From positions 180,172,001-180,236,000 of the forward strand of contig OX597814.1 of NCBI GenBank assembly GCA_951406725.2: a stretch of 64,000 nucleotides of DNA, written 5' to 3'. The DNA comes from Octopus vulgaris (taxonomy: Eukaryota). The notes under the pieces were generated by a model that searched no databases, was not told the DNA's origin, and worked only from the letters and a program-made list of their open reading frames with translations. Positions within the stretch are counted from its first letter, which is position 1, and every line of letters starts with the position of its first letter. Positions 10,328 to 63,420 of this stretch are shown piece after piece. The translations under genes were made by a program, and so were the position numbers.

Positions 10328-10631
10328 TTCTTTATTAGCCACACAGGGCTGAACACAGAGGAACAAATTACAAAGTAGAACTTTTCTTTTTGGGGGAGAA
10401 AAAAAAGTGGGGTAGGTTTTCGATCAAAAAAACGATCAATAAGGATTGTATATCACAGAAATGTCATGAAGTAAAGTGTAAAGGGGGAAGCAGATAAGGT
10501 TTATCCATGGAAAGAAAAGCCTACGGCAAAGACCACGGTAACTTCGGTCAATAATGTCACATGTTGACACATTTATTTGGAAGTAAGTAAATAGATAGAT
10601 AGATAGCTATAGATCTATATATACATATATA

Positions 10632-11278: not shown

Positions 11279-11858
11279 CATATATACGACAGGCTTCTTT
11301 CAGTTTCCGTCTACCAAATCCACTCACAAGGCATTGGTCGGCCCGGGGCTATAGCAGAAGACACTTGCTCAAGATGCCACGCAGTGGGACTGAACCCGTA
11401 ACCATGTGGTTGGTTAGCAAGCTACTTACCACACAGCCACTCCTGTAGATTACTATTACAAAGAAATTTGTAGGCAAAATATTTGAACTTACTCTGCGGT
11501 GAATTGATAATCATCTACAGTCATCTGAAAGCCTACGCTGGGGGCGAAAAAAAGACGAAACGCAAAACGTCGAAGAAAAACTGACAACTTCTTGGATCGA
11601 AGAAACCCATGACCACGATACGATTACCAGAATAATGATTTTTTCCTGACTGTTACCTTCACTATTACGCATAAAAACATTCTTTTTTTAAAAAAATATT
11701 TACGTAGGCGTAGGAGTGGCTGTGTGGTAAGTAACTTGCTTACAAACCACATGGTTCCGGGTTTAGTCCCACTGCGTGGCACCTTGGGCAAGTGTCTCGG
11801 GCCAACCAAAGCCTTGTGAGTAGATTTGGTAGACGGAAACTGAAAGAAGCCCGTCGTA

Positions 11859-12918: not shown

Positions 12919-12997
12919 AGCAAGGGAACCTGGATTCAAGCGGTCATTTGTCCGTATCATCGTATCACATGATGGGGTGGTATTGTGGATACCTGTG
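12919..12997 (+). CDS. Cys-loop ligand-gated ion channel (nAChR-like) subunit, first exon found in window (extracellular beta5-beta6 region)
   Basis: Acceptor ttgatttttAG at 12917-18 and donor GTG|gtaagt at 12998. Encodes (x)AREPGFKRSFVRIIVSHDGVVLWIPV, matching the nAChR 'V..dG.V.W.P' motif. Phase-0 end joins the 19267 exon. Confidence 0.85.
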
Positions 12998-18081: not shown

Positions 18082-18643
18082 CACAACCACCCTCTCTACC
18101 ACTACCTATTTCTTTACTACTCACAAGGGGCTAAACATAAAGTGGACAAACAAGGACAGACAAACGGATTAAGTCGATTATATCGACCCCAGTGCGTAAC
18201 TGGTACTTTATTTGTCGACCTCGGCGGAATTTGAACTCAGAACGTAACGGCAGACGAAATACGGCTACGCATTTCGCCCGGCGTGCTAACGTTTCTGCCA
18301 GCTAGCCGCGTCTCTACCATCACTGTCGAAGGAATCTCTATGGGATCGCTCGACCTATTGAAAATAGCAGCCAAACTTCTCTGAAATCACATTCCACCGT
18401 TTTTAAAATACAAGACAGGTTCATTGGAAAACCTAATCCAGGACATGAATAAAACGAGATGGGCGTGAGTAGAACGCCTTTGACCATAATTCTACTTTAT
18501 TAGGAGTTCCAATGGGGCTGCAAATAAATTCTACTGCCATCGTATCGCTAACCATCAACCATAATTTAACCACTACATCGCCAACCACCAAAAACCATAC
18601 TTATCATAGATTATAACTGTTTCTTCATTATCTCTTATTTATG

Positions 18644-19209
18644 TTGGGTTGTCCGGAAAGTTCGTGCCGATTTATAGTAGCTTACCTTTTGACTTATTTT
18701 AGAACATGGTTGAGTCCATGAAATAGGATTTGACTTCACCTCCATTTACAGCACAGTTTAAGCTATCTTTTCGTGGAAGAAAGTTTATGTTCCTATAAAA
18801 TGTGTTAATTTTGTAACCCTTTAAAAAGGAAGATAAGAAAGTTCATTTTCGGCACTTGATGTTTTGGGAACCAGACAAAAATTGCTGCAGCTCGGCTGGG
18901 ATGTGTTACCCCACCCTCCATATTCACCAGATATTGCTCCTTCGGATTTCCACTTATTCAGGTCTCTGCAGAATAGTCTTAATAGTAGAAATTTCAATTC
19001 TTTGGATGACGTAAAAAGATACCTTGATGAATTCTTTGTCATGAAACTACCCCAGTTCTGGGAAGAGGGTATTTTCAAGTTAAAGGAAAGATGGAGACGC
19101 ATTGGGCAACAAAATGGTTCATATTTGGTTGGTTAAAAATGTAATGGCAAGTATTTATTGGCCTTTTTCTTTCCTTTAAAAATCGGCACGAACTTTCCGG
19201 ACAACCCAA
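18644..19209 (+). mobile_element. Internally deleted mariner element with transposase C-terminal fragment
   Basis: TIRs TTGGGTTGTCCGGAAAGTTCGTGCCGATTT and reverse complement. ORF 18864..19136 has LGWDVLPHPPYSPDIAPSDFHLF (mariner YSPDLAP.D motif). Confidence 0.92.
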
Positions 19210-19266
19210 TATTTATTATTATATTTTCGTATTTATTTTTACTATATTTCTATTCTCTTTTCGCAG

Positions 19267-19636
19267 ACCAAATACGAAGTGCAATGCTTTCCGAACACCA
19301 CTTTCTTCCCGTTCGACATCCAGATCTGCTCCTTGATACTAGGATCAGAGATTTACAACATTCGCCACATGGACATGAATTTTGTCAACCGACCCATCCC
19401 TTCATGGAACATTGACAAACATCCGCTGTGGAAGGTGGAACGCATAACTACCGAGAAGATCCTCAATAAGTGTTCAGGGTGTGACGTACCCTATGTTAAC
19501 CTGAAGATAAACTTTCACTTCTCACGTCATGCGACTGTTCCTTTCTACACGTTCGTGCTGCCGTGTTTTCTGCTGTCTTCTCTCAGCCTTGTCCTTTTCT
19601 TGTTACCATCAGATTTTGCCGACAAAGTCACTTTAG
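19267..19636 (+). CDS. nAChR-like subunit exon: Cys-loop, loops B/F/C, M1 and start of M2
   Basis: Acceptor ctcttttcgcAG, donor G|gtcagt. Encodes TKYEVQ-C-FPNTTFFPFDIQI-C (C-x13-C with FPFD), then M1 FYTFVLPCFLLSSLSLVLFLLP, then SDFADKVTL. Overlaps ORF 19279..19644. Confidence 0.95.
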
Positions 19637-21221
19637 GTCAGTAAATCATGGCACATTTCCTGATGCCATCTTTTATATTGCTTCTGTTTGATACGTGCAT
19701 GTTAATTTTGGTACCAGTAAGTCATTAAAGGCGGCGAGCTAGCAGAACCGCAAGCATGCTGAACAAAATACTTAGGGGCATTTCATCTAGTTTTGAGTTC
19801 AAATTTCGCCGAAATCAACTTTGCCTTTCATCCTTTCGAGGTCGATAACATAAGTGCCACTTCAAAACTGGGGCCGATGTAATCAACTTATCCACTCCTC
19901 ACGAAAACGCTGGCCTTGCGCCAAAATTTGAACCCAGTAGGTCATTATTATAGGCAACGAGCTAGCAGAATCGTTAGCGTGTCGGTCAAAATGTTTAACG
20001 GATTTTGTTTTCTGCCTTTTACATTCCAAGTTCAAATTCCACCGTAGTTTCCTTTGCCTTTCATACTCTCGGGGTCGATAAAATAAGTACCAGATAAGCA
20101 CTTGGGTCAATGTAACCAATTAGACCCATCACTCAATATTTCAGGTCTTGTGCCTGTAGTAGAAAGAAACATGTCATTATCAACATCTTGTAACATTGTT
20201 TTTTGCACGTTATGCTCAGATAACTGTTACCTCTATCTGATTTGTTATTGCTAAAAACAATGTACTTGACTGTATGCCTGTCTGGTATCTTCATGTGTAT
20301 ATCATTGCCTTTCATTAACGCGCTATTAACCAACTCCCTGATACGTGGCTGCTGATGGGCTATCAATACGTTAACACCAGTTAGCTACTGTCCGTCAGTT
20401 ATCAATACATTCTAACCAACCGGCCTTTGGCAATAATGTATTGATAACAGACATTGTGAGGAAAATGTGTTGATTATTGCAACAAAGAGAAGGAAATCTA
20501 TCTATTGGTGAACTGAACCCGGAATAAATTGGTGCACGCAAGATATCACAAACAGTTTACACAATGGTCTGTCTACAATGACAGGTTTGGAGACTGGATT
20601 CTGTTCCAGGACGGAGCATTTCCAAAATGATCACCAACAGCTTGGTAAACTTGTTAATGTATAATAAAATGTTCTGTCAAGAAATTCTATGAAACACCAG
20701 CAAGGGATTTGAAGCCATGATCCACGAGAATGTAAGTGCAATGTAATTCTCGATTAAGCAGAAGCATTGTATAATTGAGAAAGTTTGTGGGTGGAGCTTC
20801 GTCGTTTGATTAATTACCTGTGCGTTGTAAGATTACTCGATCGAGGCTCATCTGGGGCTACACGAGAACAACGACAACGTAGACACTTGATCATCTCACC
20901 ATTACAAGAAAACAACAATCCTATAGCTTTATCAGGAAAAAAAAAACAAATTGGTTTATTAATGAGTATCATTTGTGTAACGAATTTGAAAAGTCATTAA
21001 GAAACCAGATAAAACGCTTTGGATTACATCGACCCCAGTGCGTAACTGGTACTTATCTAATCGACCCCGGCAGAATTTGAACTCAGAACGTAACAGCAGA
21101 CGAAATACCGCTAGGCATTTCGCCCGGCGCGCTAACGCTTCTGCCAGCTCGCCGCCTTATTTCACGTTGTTCCAGCCTACTTAGCTAAAAATAAATACCA
21201 GCCAATTACTGCTGAAGCACC

Positions 21222-40489: not shown

Positions 40490-40900
40490 ATTATGTTTGA
40501 TTTCTTTGCACCAATACTTTGTTTGAAGGACATGGTGAAAAAGAGCAGATCGCAATATTTGATTGCAGAAGAGAACAGCTTCCAGCTCAGCATCAATAAT
40601 TATTGTTCACTACCAAAAATACAGAACCAAGGAGAAGTTGACAAAGAACACCTCTGTGAAGATGACTTACCAGAAAGTCATCCGAGATCAGATTACCAAC
40701 AAATAGAAGCTGATATTGCTAATATCAGAAGAATTGCCAGTGACTATACAAAGAAACTCAATGAAGCAGAATCAGAGAAAAAAGTATTAGATGAGTGGAA
40801 ACGGTTAGCAATGGTGCTCAATTGTTTGTTTTTTGTTTGTTATTTGTTCCTTTTTGGTGGTTCGCTCATTGCTTATTTTCTGTTGGCTTACATCAAATAA
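40490..40900 (+). CDS. nAChR-like subunit terminal exon: MX, intracellular loop, MA helix, M4, stop
   Basis: Acceptor ttctatttcacAG, phase 0. Encodes IMFDFFAPILCLKD...EWKRLAMVLNCLFFVCYLFLFGGSLIAYFLLAYIK*, with the EWK..A.V pre-M4 motif. ORF 40493..40900; AATAAA overlaps the stop at 40896-40901. Confidence 0.9.
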   Translation: MMFDFFAPILCLKDMVKKSRSQYLIAEENSFQLSINNYCSLPKIQNQGEVDKEHLCEDDLPESHPRSDYQQIEADIANIRRIASDYTKKLNEAESEKKVLDEWKRLAMVLNCLFFVCYLFLFGGSLIAYFLLAYIK

Positions 40901-41914: not shown

Positions 41915-42840
41915 TTGGGTCATCCCATAAGTAATGTGTTTTTTTAAATATTTCTTTTATATTTCAAAATTAAGATGAACAAAATTCTTTTTTAATCTAA
42001 TATATACTCTCCTTCATTTTTACAATGCTCTTCCATCTATCCAGTAGAATTGCAAGGCCCCTCTTCCAAAATTCACTTGTCCATGACAAAAAATACTCCT
42101 CCAATACTGTTCTGACCTCATCTACAAAATTCATATTTTTTCCATCCAAATGATTTTGAAGACTGTGGAATAGGTGATAGTCAGATGGGGCAATGTCTGG
42201 CAAATATGTTGAGTGAGGCATTATTTCCCATTCAAACTGCTCCAGTCTTTGGAATGTCATCCTTGCTCTATGTGGACCAGCATTATCCTGATGGAAGAAC
42301 ATCATTCATTTTGAAACCAAAGATGGTTGTTTTTCTTCTAGCACTGATTTGAATGACTGGTTGAATGACCAAATCCAAACCTCTCTGTTAGTTCCTCAAT
42401 GGTTATGAATGGAATTTTGTTCCACCAGGGTTTGCAGGACCTCTTCGTTGAGCTCAACAAGATCTTTCAGGATGAGGTTTGTCTTCTAATCTGGAGTTTC
42501 TGGCTCAGGATTTCTGGAACCACTGTTGACACTGCTTTACACTTATTGTCTGATCTCCATATACTGCATTAATATTCCTTGCACTTTCCATTGTGTTGTT
42601 GACTTTACTGAACTCATAAAGCAAAATATGCTGAATATGCTCCTTTGTCACTTCCATTATAGCTTTGAAAAAATAAATGTTAAGCCAAACTGCACTCTTC
42701 AAAACTTGCACTAAGAATAATGACAAAGTAAAATTACTACCTGCTTTTATAGCAAGTTGATGCAGGTAGTTTATCCTGTCCCCCTCTGACTTTTATTTCA
42801 TGCAATTGAAAAAAAACGTATTATTTATGGAATGACCCAA
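41915..42840 (-). mobile_element. Degenerate mariner element (second family)
   Basis: TIRs TTGGGTCATCCCATAAGTAAT / ATTATTTATGGAATGACCCAA. Minus-strand ORFs MEVTKEHIQHILLYEF... (HTH) and FHQDNAGPH...HSTYLPDIAPSDYHLF. Confidence 0.9.
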
Positions 42841-51074: not shown

Positions 51075-52490
51075 TCATCATCATCCTCATCATCGTTTAA
51101 TGTCCGTTTTCCATGCTGGCATGGGCTGAACAGTTTGACTGGAGTCTGGGAAGCCAGGAGGCTGCACCAGGCCCCAATCTGATTTGGCAGTGTTTCTACA
51201 GCTGGATGCTCTTCCTAATGCCAACCACTCTGAGAGTGTAGTGGGTGCTTTTATGTGCCACTGGCACAGGGGCCAGAGGAGCTGGCATCAACCATGATCG
51301 AATGGTGCTTTTTACGTGCCACTGGCATTGGGATCACAACTACAATTTCCATTTGATTTGATTTTGATATTGCTGTTGATGTTAATGTACTTGACTCAAT
51401 AAGTTTCCTCAAGCACAGTATGTCGCCCTACAATCCAAGGTACTTTTGAGTGGGCTGGTTATGCAACACTGGTGTAGGTTACAGCTGTGGACTCACTTTA
51501 TTTGCTGGGTCTTTTCAGTCACAGCATACTTCCAGAAGTCTTGGTCTTTTGTCATTGTCTCTGTGAGTCCCAACATTCGAAGGTCATGCTTCACCACCGC
51601 ATCCTATGTCTTCCTGGGTCTCCCTCTAGCCCAGATTCCTTCCACTGTTTGGGAGTGGCACCTCTTCACACAGCTCTCCTCGTCCCTCTGCAGTACATGA
51701 CTATACCAATGCAAACATCTCTCTTGCATGCCACATCCGATGCTTCTTATGTCTAACATTTCTCTCAGGGTGCTTACACTCCAGTGGATTATGCTAGCTT
51801 CATTTCTTTTGAGCTTATGCATATCTTCAACAGTCACGGCCCATGTTTCACTGCCATGAAGCATAGCAGTTTTCACACTTGCATCATACAATCTACCTTT
51901 CACTCTGAGCAAGATGCCCTTTGTCACTCATAGAGGTAGAAGTTTTCTGAACTTTTCCCAGGCTATTCTTATGCTAGTGGTAACACTCACTGAACATCCA
52001 CCCCCACTACAGACTTGGTCACCTAGGTAGCGGAAGCTATCAACTACTTCTAGTTTCTCCCCCTGGCATGTGATGGAGTTTGTTTTCTGAGCATCTATGG
52101 TGTTTTTTGCCCCTGTGCATCTGCTGCATGTGAAAGCTATCATCCAGGTTAATTTTCCTTTGATGTTGCTGCACCTTTTATGTGTCCATAGCTTACATGG
52201 AATGCATTGCATGGAGTTTCTACCTATGCCTTTTCTACAGATCGAGAAGGGCCACCTACGTGTTGTGTTCACCTTCCTACTTACTAGAACTTTAGTTTTT
52301 GCAACATTGACTCTAAGGCCTTTTGATTCTAAACCTTGCTTCCACACTTGAAGTTTCTTCTCTAATTCTGGCAGTTATTCTGCTATGAGGGCCAGGTCAT
52401 CAGCATAGAAGAGCTCACAGGAGCAGCATGTCTTGAATTCCTCTGTTATTGCCTGGAGGACTATAATGAATAAGAGGGGGCTGATACTCG
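51075..52490 (-). mobile_element. RTE-clade LINE 3' portion (RT C-terminus, 3'UTR, (GAT)n tail), degenerate
   Basis: Minus-strand peptides SPLLFIIVLQAITEEF..ELFYADDLALIAE, GLRVNVAKTKV, VVDSFRYLGDQV, MLHGSETWA, GRPRKT, broken by stops. Confidence 0.9.
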
Positions 52491-52955
52491 GAATGTGTGT
52501 GTGTGTGTGTCTCTCTCTCTCTCTCGATATATATACATATATATATATATATGTACACATATACATATGTATGTACATATGTATGTGTGTATGTATAAAC
52601 CTAAGTAGTAAACATATAAACATAGCAAATTTAACTATTTCTCCCTAGATTGAGAAAAGGATGAGTAGCCTTTATTGATTTTCAAATGTTACTGAGTTCT
52701 TACCAGAGGTGTCTACATCATTTGACCAATCTCAGAGAAATAAGTAGGGAAACTGTTTATAAACTCAATAAATCCAGAAAGCTAACTCAAGCACTAATGT
52801 TTTTAATACTTTATATAACACCAGTGACCTGCCAATGGGAATCTCAATCCACACAGCATCAAGGTATAATATATATAACCTATGCAGTAGATGGACAAAA
52901 ATGACCAGTTTATTTATTTCTCCATAGATTGAAAAGAATTGATGAACAATCTTAA

Positions 52956-61029: not shown

Positions 61030-63420
61030 TAAACTGGCATGGAAAACCATTCGACTGGAAATCACCAGGTCCGAATGGACTGAAGAGGTTACTGGATTAA
61101 GAATTTAATGTCAATGTGTCAGAGGGTAACGTAAGTGTTTGACAAAAGTTTCGACTATAGACTCCAACAGCAATAATAGTAAAAGATGAAACATTGGTAA
61201 ATGAAGCAACCAACTACAGACCTATCACCAATCTTCCATTAATTTGGAAATTACTGACCAGCATAATCTCCGAAGTAATCTTTCAATATTTAAATAACAA
61301 CAAACTGTTGACAGAGCATAAAAGTTACCGAAAATACAAAAGAATAGTAGGTAAAGCAATTGTTCGAGATGGTAAAAGAACAAAAAGAAAAATTAGCTAT
61401 GACCTGGCTTGATTATATTGGGTTGTCCGGAAAGTTTGTGCCGATTTTTAAAGGAAAGAAAAAGGTCAATAAATACTTGCCATTACATTTTTAATCAACC
61501 AAATATGAACCATTTTGTTGGACAAAGCGTCTCCATCTCTCCTTTAACTTGAAAATACCCTCTTCCCAGAATTGAGGTGCCTGGGAGGGAAAGTCGAAAG
61601 GTAAAGCTACTATAAATCGGCACGAACTTTCCGGACAACCCAATAAAATAGCTTTCGTTTTTGGTCTCGCGTTCCTGGTTCAAATGCCAAGGCATATTCA
61701 AAATAATCATTTCTCAGATATCGTATGGTCCAATGGGAGACAGAACTCACATTGGGCAGTGAGAAACTAGAGAGAGTAATAATAAAAGAAGAAATAGTCC
61801 AAGAGGATAATCTATTACCATTACTATTTACAGTCTTATCATATGGTTCACATCTTATAAGAAGTGGACATGAAATAAGAGAAGTTGAACAAACCATTAA
61901 TCATCTTTTTTTTTTTTTTTTTGAGGATGATCAGAAATTATAAGGTAAGAATTTAAAAAGTAACTTGACACTTTGGTGAAAAGCGTCAGAATATTCACTG
62001 AGGACGTATAAATGGAATTCAACATTAATAAGCGTAACACCCTGGCCATAAAGACATGGAAAATGTTTGAAACAGGTGGAATTGAGTTCTGCACAGATGG
62101 ATGTATAAAGTAGGTTGACAATGAAATCGTGTACAAGTACTTAAGAGTTTTAGAAGTTGATAGGTTAAAAGGAAAAAAAAAAAAAGGAAAAAGTCACTGA
62201 AAAACGAATACATAAGAAAAGTCATGAAAATATTTCGGAGATTATTGACTATTTTTTCACTCTTAATTCTCCGAACGCCACCTTTAATTTGATTAAATTG
62301 ATGTCTACAAAATAGGTGATTATAAATATATACTATTATCGATTGAACTGACGGTAAAATAAAAAAAATTATTCCATACGCACACGGGACACAAATATAC
62401 ACACAGACCTGAACAATAGAAATATGACCATAGCTAACAACTCACGTGCTGTCTCAGACATTGCATATACAGCAGTCATCTCTAATTAGAATATCCAAGA
62501 ACTATAGGCTTTTAGTAGGAAAAGTAGGGGGCAGCTGGCGATGTTGAACATGCCTCACAAAAAGATGATAGGTTATACGACACGTAGTTGCTGCTTTGGA
62601 AGCCCAGTAGGTAAAAGTGTTTAGAAGTAGTAACATAACATACAAGTGGAAGTTTCAAATCTCTACTATGAACTATAATTATTTCAGGCGGCGAGCTGGC
62701 AGAATCGTTAGCACGCCAGGCGAAATGCGTAGCCATATTTCGTCTGCCGTTACGTTCTGAGTTCAAATTCCGCCGAGGTCGACTTTGCTTTTCATCCTTT
62801 CGATTGTGTTCAGGTGTGAAAGGGAGAATTGGGAGGTGAAAGACACAAGAATGAGCGACGAATTCGTGGAAAATATGGAGGAGTATTTCGGAGTAAGAAT
62901 GGATATGGAAGGTCTTCGTATTGGGAATGAACATTTAAGTGACAGTCGATTAAATTAGTACCAGTTACGCACTGGTGCGTAACTGGTACTTGTATAATCG
63001 ACTTAATCCGTTTGTCAGTCTTTGTTTGTCCTCTGTGTTTAGCCCCTTGTGGGTAGTAAAGAAATAGGTTATACGACACGCAGTGAGAGGTTTATCGGAG
63101 AAGATTGTGTTGTAATGGAGCAACACTGCAAAAGTGTGGCAGAAAATTTTCAAAATATATTTAATGATGTGAAAATATGAAAAATACCAGGAAAGAAAAA
63201 GTTGATATCAAGGAAAGCATGAAAGAAAACTGGAAGAGGAAAACATGCATGGAACTTTCTTCAAGAACATTGAATTCAGAAGCACTAAGATTTGAAGCTA
63301 AAGAAATGGAAATTGAAGAATATCACACAAGGTAATATAATGATAGTCTAAAACCAGGCTGTAAGGACACAGGAAATCTGAAGACACGGGGAAGGAAGAT
63401 ATATAGCCACTATGTCGCTT
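61030..63420 (+). mobile_element. R4/Dong-like (RLE-type) LINE relic, interrupted by mariner MITE and SINEs
   Basis: WKSPGPNG..YWIKNL (~61055), NYRPITNLPLIWKLLTSII, IVQEDNLLPLLF, INHLFF..DDQKL, W.RK.MHG (~63232). Confidence 0.75.
61418..61643 (-). mobile_element. MITE derivative of the same mariner family
   Basis: Same TIRs, TA on both sides; internal sequence matches the ends of 18644-19209 in reverse orientation. Confidence 0.9.

Follow-up and report, generated by a model that had tools for sequence, protein, structure and literature searches.

The window analysed here, a stretch of 64,000 nucleotides from Octopus vulgaris, carries five coding exons of an intact octopod gene for a subunit of the nicotinic (Cys-loop) receptor family (Table 1). 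One of these exons is the subject of this study. Frame 1 from 19201 translates as ...CFPNTTFFPFDIQICSLILGSEIY...LNKCSGCDVPY..., and the exon matches Pfam PF02931, the ligand-binding domain of neurotransmitter-gated channels; it extends to 19636, taking in TM1, beyond the 19267-19500 first described. The four further exons were located by tblastn with database orthologues. All five are in frame, have AG/GT ends, span 28 kb of the window and match the O. vulgaris protein P0005 exactly, and the gene as a whole has at least five coding introns. The signal peptide, loop D and loop A are encoded by 5′ exons that fall upstream of the window, and the residues of these two loops are thus read from P0002, P0003 and P0005. 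With PF02931 and PF02932, a C-x13-C Cys-loop and four TM helices, the protein has the hallmarks of a pentameric Cys-loop channel. In O. bimaculoides, O. sinensis, O. vulgaris and Argonauta hians the orthologues bear automatic database names such as 'nAChR alpha-5-like'; two records of the gene are XP_029645319 and XP_014777761. A literature search on the four orthologue accessions found no paper, and the literature searched, which left most subscription papers outside, including those on chemotactile-receptor structures, gave no account of this subunit or of the loop-C change described below.

Table 1. Features of the subunit gene within the window
Feature	Position	Strand	Evidence
Coding exon from the end of the loop A region as far as loop E	12919..12997	+	tblastn with orthologues; equals P0005 residues 84-109; AG/GT
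Coding exon under study: Cys-loop, loops B, F and C, TM1, M1-M2 linker	19267..19636	+	PF02931, E 3.3e-9; equals P0005 110-232; AG/GT; contigs of X1, X3, X11
Intact Cys-loop C-x13-C, with NTT sequon at 19294-19302	19285..19329	+	translation; sequon also in Argonauta
Glu (GAG) in place of loop-B Trp; Ala in Argonauta and P0009	19348..19350	+	codon check, alignments
Loop-C CxxC: Cys 19471-73, Ser, Gly, Cys 19480-82	19471..19482	+	gap-free alignment with P0009, P0010, P0022; column table
Second loop-C Tyr, sole canonical aromatic-box residue unchanged	19492..19494	+	column table
Asp at −1′ selectivity position (A-D-K, not P-A-K; motif 19618-26)	19621..19623	+	translation, alignment
Coding exon: TM2, the pore helix with Met at 9′, and M2-M3 loop	22104..22187	+	tblastn, P0005 match, AG/GT
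Coding exon, TM3 and start of intracellular loop	27846..27961	+	tblastn, P0005 match, AG/GT
Last coding exon: intracellular loop, TM4, stop codon	40490..40900	+	Pfam, tblastn, P0005 match; splice-end check

Several database models of the gene depart from this structure. Positions 10554-10583 and 11486-11533 match the short N-termini of the truncated models P0004 and P0007 and are probably false first exons of models that miss the upstream ones. Positions 63189-63329 match an alternative C-terminal tail of model P0006. This model departs from the last exon near 40804 and is without TM4, and its tail could be either an error of prediction or a minor isoform. The NTT sequon lies near the start of the Cys-loop and is absent from the relatives P0009 and P0010, whereas nAChRs are usually glycosylated on the Cys-loop's C-terminal side, according to the accessible text of PMC9319688.

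The Glu at loop B and the CxxC of loop C are not assembly errors. Contigs from all four sequencing runs, drawn from four studies, cover the exon with the Glu and Cys codons unchanged, and four differences within the exon, seen in X11 and X16, each fall on a synonymous third position. In X1, X3 and X11, which are presumed to be RNA, one contig spans exactly 19266-19637 and continues at both ends, with no depth in the adjoining unique intron bins, whereas in X16 a single contig continues through both intron flanks. This is the pattern expected of spliced transcripts on the one hand and genomic DNA on the other. A codon check confirmed, to the base, the positions at which the preliminary description had placed the Glu, the CxxC and the Cys-loop with its NTT sequon. 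Its argument that A-to-I editing is unable to restore the Trp is likewise sound, since reading the A of GAG as G turns the codon into GGG (Gly); contigs drop rare variants, and low-level editing could thus escape a contig comparison.

The surroundings of the exon are rich in repeats. A short remnant at 18641-19212, which we take to be of the mariner family, ends 54 bases before the exon and is bounded by 36-nt terminal inverted repeats that are 94% complementary. It contains a transposase-like fragment (18837-19136), its copies are abundant in the sequencing runs, and a similar end lies near 61420-61563. On the minus strand, 41997-42792 and 51604-52644 in the ORF list presumably hold mariner-like transposase fragments and reverse-transcriptase-like LINE fragments.

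Binding-site residues are named here by the usual alpha1 numbering. The alignment comprised 146 of 158 selected proteins, those that covered the core; apart from the target rows it holds 143 relatives. Gap-free alignments to human alpha6 and alpha4 place the Glu at the site of the loop-B Trp. Across the three octopod rows the aromatic box (loops D, A, B, C1 and C2) reads Leu, Phe, Glu/Ala, Cys and Tyr, D and A being taken from P0002, P0003 and P0005; in most of the relatives the same columns hold W/Y, F/Y, W, Y and Y/F. Trp is found at loop B in 130 of the 143 and at loop D in 92, Tyr stands at C1 in 92, and at most two of the five aromatics remain in 18. By this count such aromatic loss is uncommon, yet not unique. 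The loop-B residue varies between orthologues, Glu in Octopus and Ala in Argonauta, and the kept feature is thus the loss of Trp, not the Glu. The loop-D Trp is lost in the orthologues too, so that neither face of the acetylcholine site is complete. Set against an alpha subunit, the gene has C-S-G-C for YxCC, Glu or Ala for the loop-B Trp and Phe for the loop-A Tyr (loop A from orthologues). Conventional beta subunits, on the other hand, keep the loop-B Trp and supply the loop-D Trp (beta2 Trp151 and Trp57, in the accessible text of PMC9319688), and here the latter is Leu in P0002, P0003 and P0005. Judged by its residues, the site is degraded on both faces, further than in beta subunits. The principal face had already been described as broken, and the loop-B Trp and first loop-C Tyr are replaced; the loss is somewhat more complete than was noted, extending to loop D. 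The residues of the aromatic cage are listed in the available parts of PMC9319688 and PMC10338036. Broken binding sites are common among molluscan nAChRs: as far as the sources could be consulted, the oyster keeps the full principal site in only 13 of 33 alpha subunits (PMC6896357), and across 3,586 molluscan sequences a survey describes clades in which binding residues have been replaced (PMC13174522).

In loop C, Tyr-x-Cys-Cys has become Cys-x-Gly-Cys. The alignment to P0009, P0010 and P0022, the nearest relatives, all of which retain the vicinal CC, has no gaps: the new Cys stands at the loop-C Tyr, the first vicinal Cys has become Gly and the second is kept. Among the 143 relatives loop C carries CC in 87, is free of Cys in 54, and has one Cys in one and a CxxC in one. 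This last protein, P0133, has Arg at −1′, keeps the Tyr and contains an insertion; the latter two features indicate a separate origin of its CxxC. Orthologues lacking the motif, which the preliminary description had regarded as telling against it, did not appear, the CxxC being present in all four octopod species compared. The only Cys of the ectodomain are the pair of the Cys-loop and the pair of the CxxC, four in total. In a model of the Argonauta protein (pLDDT 89.3, from a 96-row alignment rich in CC proteins; an earlier 7-row version with pLDDT 52 was set aside), C212 and C215 lie in the loop between strands 198-210 and 219-230, the tip of the beta9-beta10 hairpin, at pLDDT of about 96. 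The simplest account of the pair is a likely structural replacement disulfide. The loops around them (B, F and C) are the least conserved part of the protein, 65% identical between Octopus and Argonauta, and retention of the CxxC in both is thus weak evidence of a special function; at this local identity both Cys would be expected to survive about 4 times in 10 by chance.

A scan of 1.84 billion representatives returned P0009 (35%), P0010 (32%) and P0022 (31%) as the closest proteins, with P0013, P0014 and P0019 ranking directly behind these clade mates and two multi-domain rows. P0010 and P0022 keep the loop-B Trp and YxCC, while P0009 keeps YxCC and the loop-D Trp and has Ala at loop B. Together with the octopod proteins the three form a clade in IQ-TREE runs on 48 rows (100/99) and 30 rows (100/100), the rows having been hand-picked from a 146-row FastTree tree and the smaller run omitting four long ones; P0009, which may be the orthologue in another lineage, has an AU p of 0.278 as sister to the octopod proteins. 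The clade adjoins the PAK-motif clade and a Cys-free group in an unresolved node (85/89; 91/95). The PAK clade, whose rows are assigned by motif and not by a tested AChRB sequence, has support of 96/92 and 97/96, and the octopod gene lies outside it in the best trees. A position beside the PAK-motif chloride-channel clade (AChRB) thus has moderate support in these alignments. The deeper placement is not firm: neither nesting with the PAK subgroup P0014/P0019/P0025 (p 0.167) nor a group with four rows of the classical cationic type (p 0.168) is rejected by the AU test. Mean identity is 34.5% to that PAK subgroup against 26-31% to five other three-row groups, and ten states are shared exclusively with the subgroup against seven with the cationic rows. 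P0012 and P0016, which are named as beta-type, fall in a separate clade of the 146-row tree, in agreement with the preliminary description, which had set its reading against placement among conventional beta subunits. The trees contained no labelled chemotactile-receptor row; P0161 was considered as one and rejected, with no match to the chemotactile-receptor structures among the 60 rows listed. The word-based homologue searches were insensitive (2 of 85, 6 of 7999 and 7 of 7999 candidates passed, and the third missed P0009 and P0010), and squid or cuttlefish orthologues may thus have been missed.

The −1′ residue is Asp in the octopod gene, Glu in its clade mates and Ala in the PAK clade. An acidic residue at this position is associated with cation channels and Pro-Ala with anion channels (accessible parts of PMC4055736 and bioRxiv 2025.04.02.646353), and the channel is predicted to prefer cations. 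Between Octopus and Argonauta, identity is 141/189 (75%) in the ectodomain, 82/90 (91%) in TM1-3 and 82/110 (75%) in the intracellular loop. Two PAK paralogues of the same species pair reach 188/191 (98%) and 178/191 (93%) in the ectodomain and 90/90 and 89/90 (99-100%) in TM1-3. The ectodomains of P0010 and P0022 are 59% identical. The gene is intact and fast-evolving in all parts, the latter least so in the membrane. Since the whole protein and the whole clade are fast, rate cannot separate an accessory subunit from a receptor for a new ligand.

The gene can be compared with several known systems. First of all, its nearest named relatives by search and tree are the acetylcholine-gated chloride channels of the AChRB/PAK-motif type (octopus AChRB1, Lymnaea AChRB, Schistosoma SmACC). 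It is similar to the PAK rows in TM2-TM3, and none of the PAK rows listed has Leu at 9′; unlike AChRB, it has A-D-K where they have P-A-K and lacks the loop-B Trp and YxCC. A preprint on cephalopod salivary glands (bioRxiv 10.1101/2025.06.15.659772) places, in its available part, uncharacterised cephalopod groups 4 and 5 (PSG unknown 4 and 5) as sisters to inhibitory AChR group B, the same position as found here. These groups may include this gene, a likeness that lies in their position. Second, vertebrate alpha5 and beta3, like the octopod subunit, lack the first loop-C Tyr; beta3 also has the loop-A Phe, and in the accessible text of PMC9319688 they are modelled at the non-binding position. 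The same text shows that beta3, unlike the octopod subunit, keeps the loop-B Trp. As far as tested, neither is orthologous to the octopod gene, and the 'alpha-5' of the databases is an automatic label. Third, the chemotactile receptors CRT1 and CRB1 are, like this gene, cephalopod derivatives of nAChRs with a fast-evolving ectodomain and no acetylcholine site. They lack introns and form a cluster on chromosome 15 of O. bimaculoides (PMC13174522, accessible part), whereas the octopod gene has five coding exons over 28 kb of the window; the earlier distinction between the two thus stands. A PDB sequence search gave no chemotactile-receptor chain among the best 60 matches, identity is about 25% to all solved nAChRs, and the ESM Atlas yielded generic Cys-loop clusters only. 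The best structural matches of the model are nAChRs, with Z 29.8, rmsd 1.7, 383 aligned residues and 25% identity for alpha7, against Z 23.6, 2.7, 308 and 18% for CRB1 and Z 21.6, 2.8, 287 and 20% for CRT1, a difference to be read with the model's lean towards nAChRs through its alignment. Finally, Alpo4 of Alvinella is, like the octopod gene, an isolated lophotrochozoan orphan channel with a loop-A Phe and no vicinal disulfide; unlike it, Alpo4 keeps the loop-B Trp, both loop-C Tyr and the loop-D Trp (PMC10338036, accessible text). The dopamine-gated DopC cation channels keep YxCC, in what is available of their description, whereas the octopod protein has neither YxCC nor the loop-B Trp.

The preliminary description had left the gene as either an orphan receptor or an accessory subunit. 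That it is an intron-containing subunit is borne out, and between the two the loss of the loop-D Trp in the orthologues leans slightly towards the latter. We tentatively favour an accessory, non-binding subunit with a likely structural replacement disulfide, a reading that we hold to be nearly, though not quite, an even proposition. Having lost most aromatics of both halves of the acetylcholine site, the subunit would occupy a place in the pentamer where no binding face is required, a role ascribed to vertebrate alpha5 and beta3, and other subunits of the mixed pentamer would bind the transmitter. The loop-C Cys pair would staple the hairpin tip by a disulfide in place of the vicinal bond, and the −1′ Asp would make the channel prefer cations and would, together with the Met at 9′, tune selectivity and gating. 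We favour this because neither acetylcholine half is supplied, the loop-B residue drifts (the difference between orthologues fits a site free to do so), the membrane part is best kept, and the loss of the C1 Tyr together with the loop-A Phe resembles alpha5 and beta3. Furthermore, in a preprint on the optic lobe, in which 41 channels were tested in oocytes with 18 ligands, two octopus AChRB paralogues were silent when expressed as homomers (bioRxiv 2025.04.02.646353, accessible part), which makes heteromers plausible near this gene. Against the accessory reading, the chemotactile receptors have likewise lost the site and yet are true receptors, and the purely accessory role of alpha5 and beta3 is itself disputed (PMC9319688, accessible text).

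The strongest alternative, which comes close behind and which we consider possible although somewhat doubtful, is a cation channel that, alone or with its clade mates, is opened by a ligand other than acetylcholine, and thus a second, intron-containing route from an nAChR to a chemoreceptor or paracrine receptor. Stepwise remodelling can be traced from P0010 and P0022, which keep Trp, Tyr and CC, through P0009, which has lost only the loop-B Trp, to the octopod gene, which has lost the loop-B Trp, loop-D Trp and loop-C Tyr. The low conservation of loops B, F and C also fits a new ligand, as do the precedents of the chemotactile receptors, the orphan Alpo4 and dopamine-gated DopC, and the groups sister to AChRB reported in salivary-gland transcriptomes. 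On the other hand, no conserved replacement residue is shown in the pocket, where the loop-B position varies between orthologues; the pocket of CRT1 is rich in aromatics (Y58, W122, F124 and F192, in the accessible part of its description), whereas the octopod protein has lost them, and the DopC precedent itself retains YxCC. A further proposal, which we regard as improbable, is that the clade arose from inside AChRB and regained an acidic −1′, an anion-to-cation reversal, after which the octopods would have shed the site and re-stapled loop C, giving a second non-cholinergic receptor class, one with introns, or a subunit that shifts inhibitory AChRB pentamers towards excitation. Nesting inside AChRB with such a reversal was set aside as the main reading, as it is not the best tree.

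The remaining explanations fare considerably worse. The CxxC had been proposed as a novel disulfide or as a redox or metal switch; the former is plausible, but a regulatory switch, be it a disulfide that responds to redox state or a contribution to a Zn site, we hold to be very unlikely. The motif is rare, recurring once among the 143 relatives and there in another register, it is kept in Octopus and Argonauta, and these share His residues that follow loop B and others within loop F. However, one Cys is the ancestral vicinal one and the other stands at the Tyr position, so that a simple shift suffices; the survival of both is not significant at the local identity given above, and the nearest outside relatives have ordinary CC. 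No geometry puts a His beside a CxxC Cys, and a literature search joining nAChR loop C with CxxC returned a venom review as its one match. Very unlikely, too, is that the gene is a decaying paralogue of little function on which selection has relaxed: the ectodomain is indeed less conserved than in the PAK paralogues, and two database gene models are truncated N-terminally and one lacks TM4, but the frame is open in four species, TM1-3 remains highly conserved in Argonauta, all four exonic differences in contigs from other organisms are synonymous, and exon-bounded contigs occur in three studies. Least probable of all is an ordinary beta-type subunit providing the complementary face of the acetylcholine site, since the absence of the vicinal Cys, the usual definition of a non-alpha subunit (PMC4055736, accessible text), and the AU result for the classical cationic rows are set against a loop-D Leu in all three octopod rows, the separate clade of the named beta-type proteins and nearest relatives that are alpha-type.

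The gene is thus real, intact and previously annotated, and a good candidate for deorphanisation or co-expression. That molluscan nAChRs can have broken sites is, as a general theme, already published. If the octopod subunit is accessory, it would be a ready candidate for pairing with those octopus AChRB-type subunits that give no current as homomers, and the Asp at −1′ would allow a direct test of whether subunit mixing flips the sign of a cholinergic response. Should it instead prove to be a receptor for a new ligand, the progression from P0010 and P0022 through P0009 to the octopod gene would represent a stepwise dismantling of the binding site, independent of the chemotactile receptors. 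The Tyr-to-Cys shift, furthermore, offers a natural experiment on the purpose of the loop-C disulfide.
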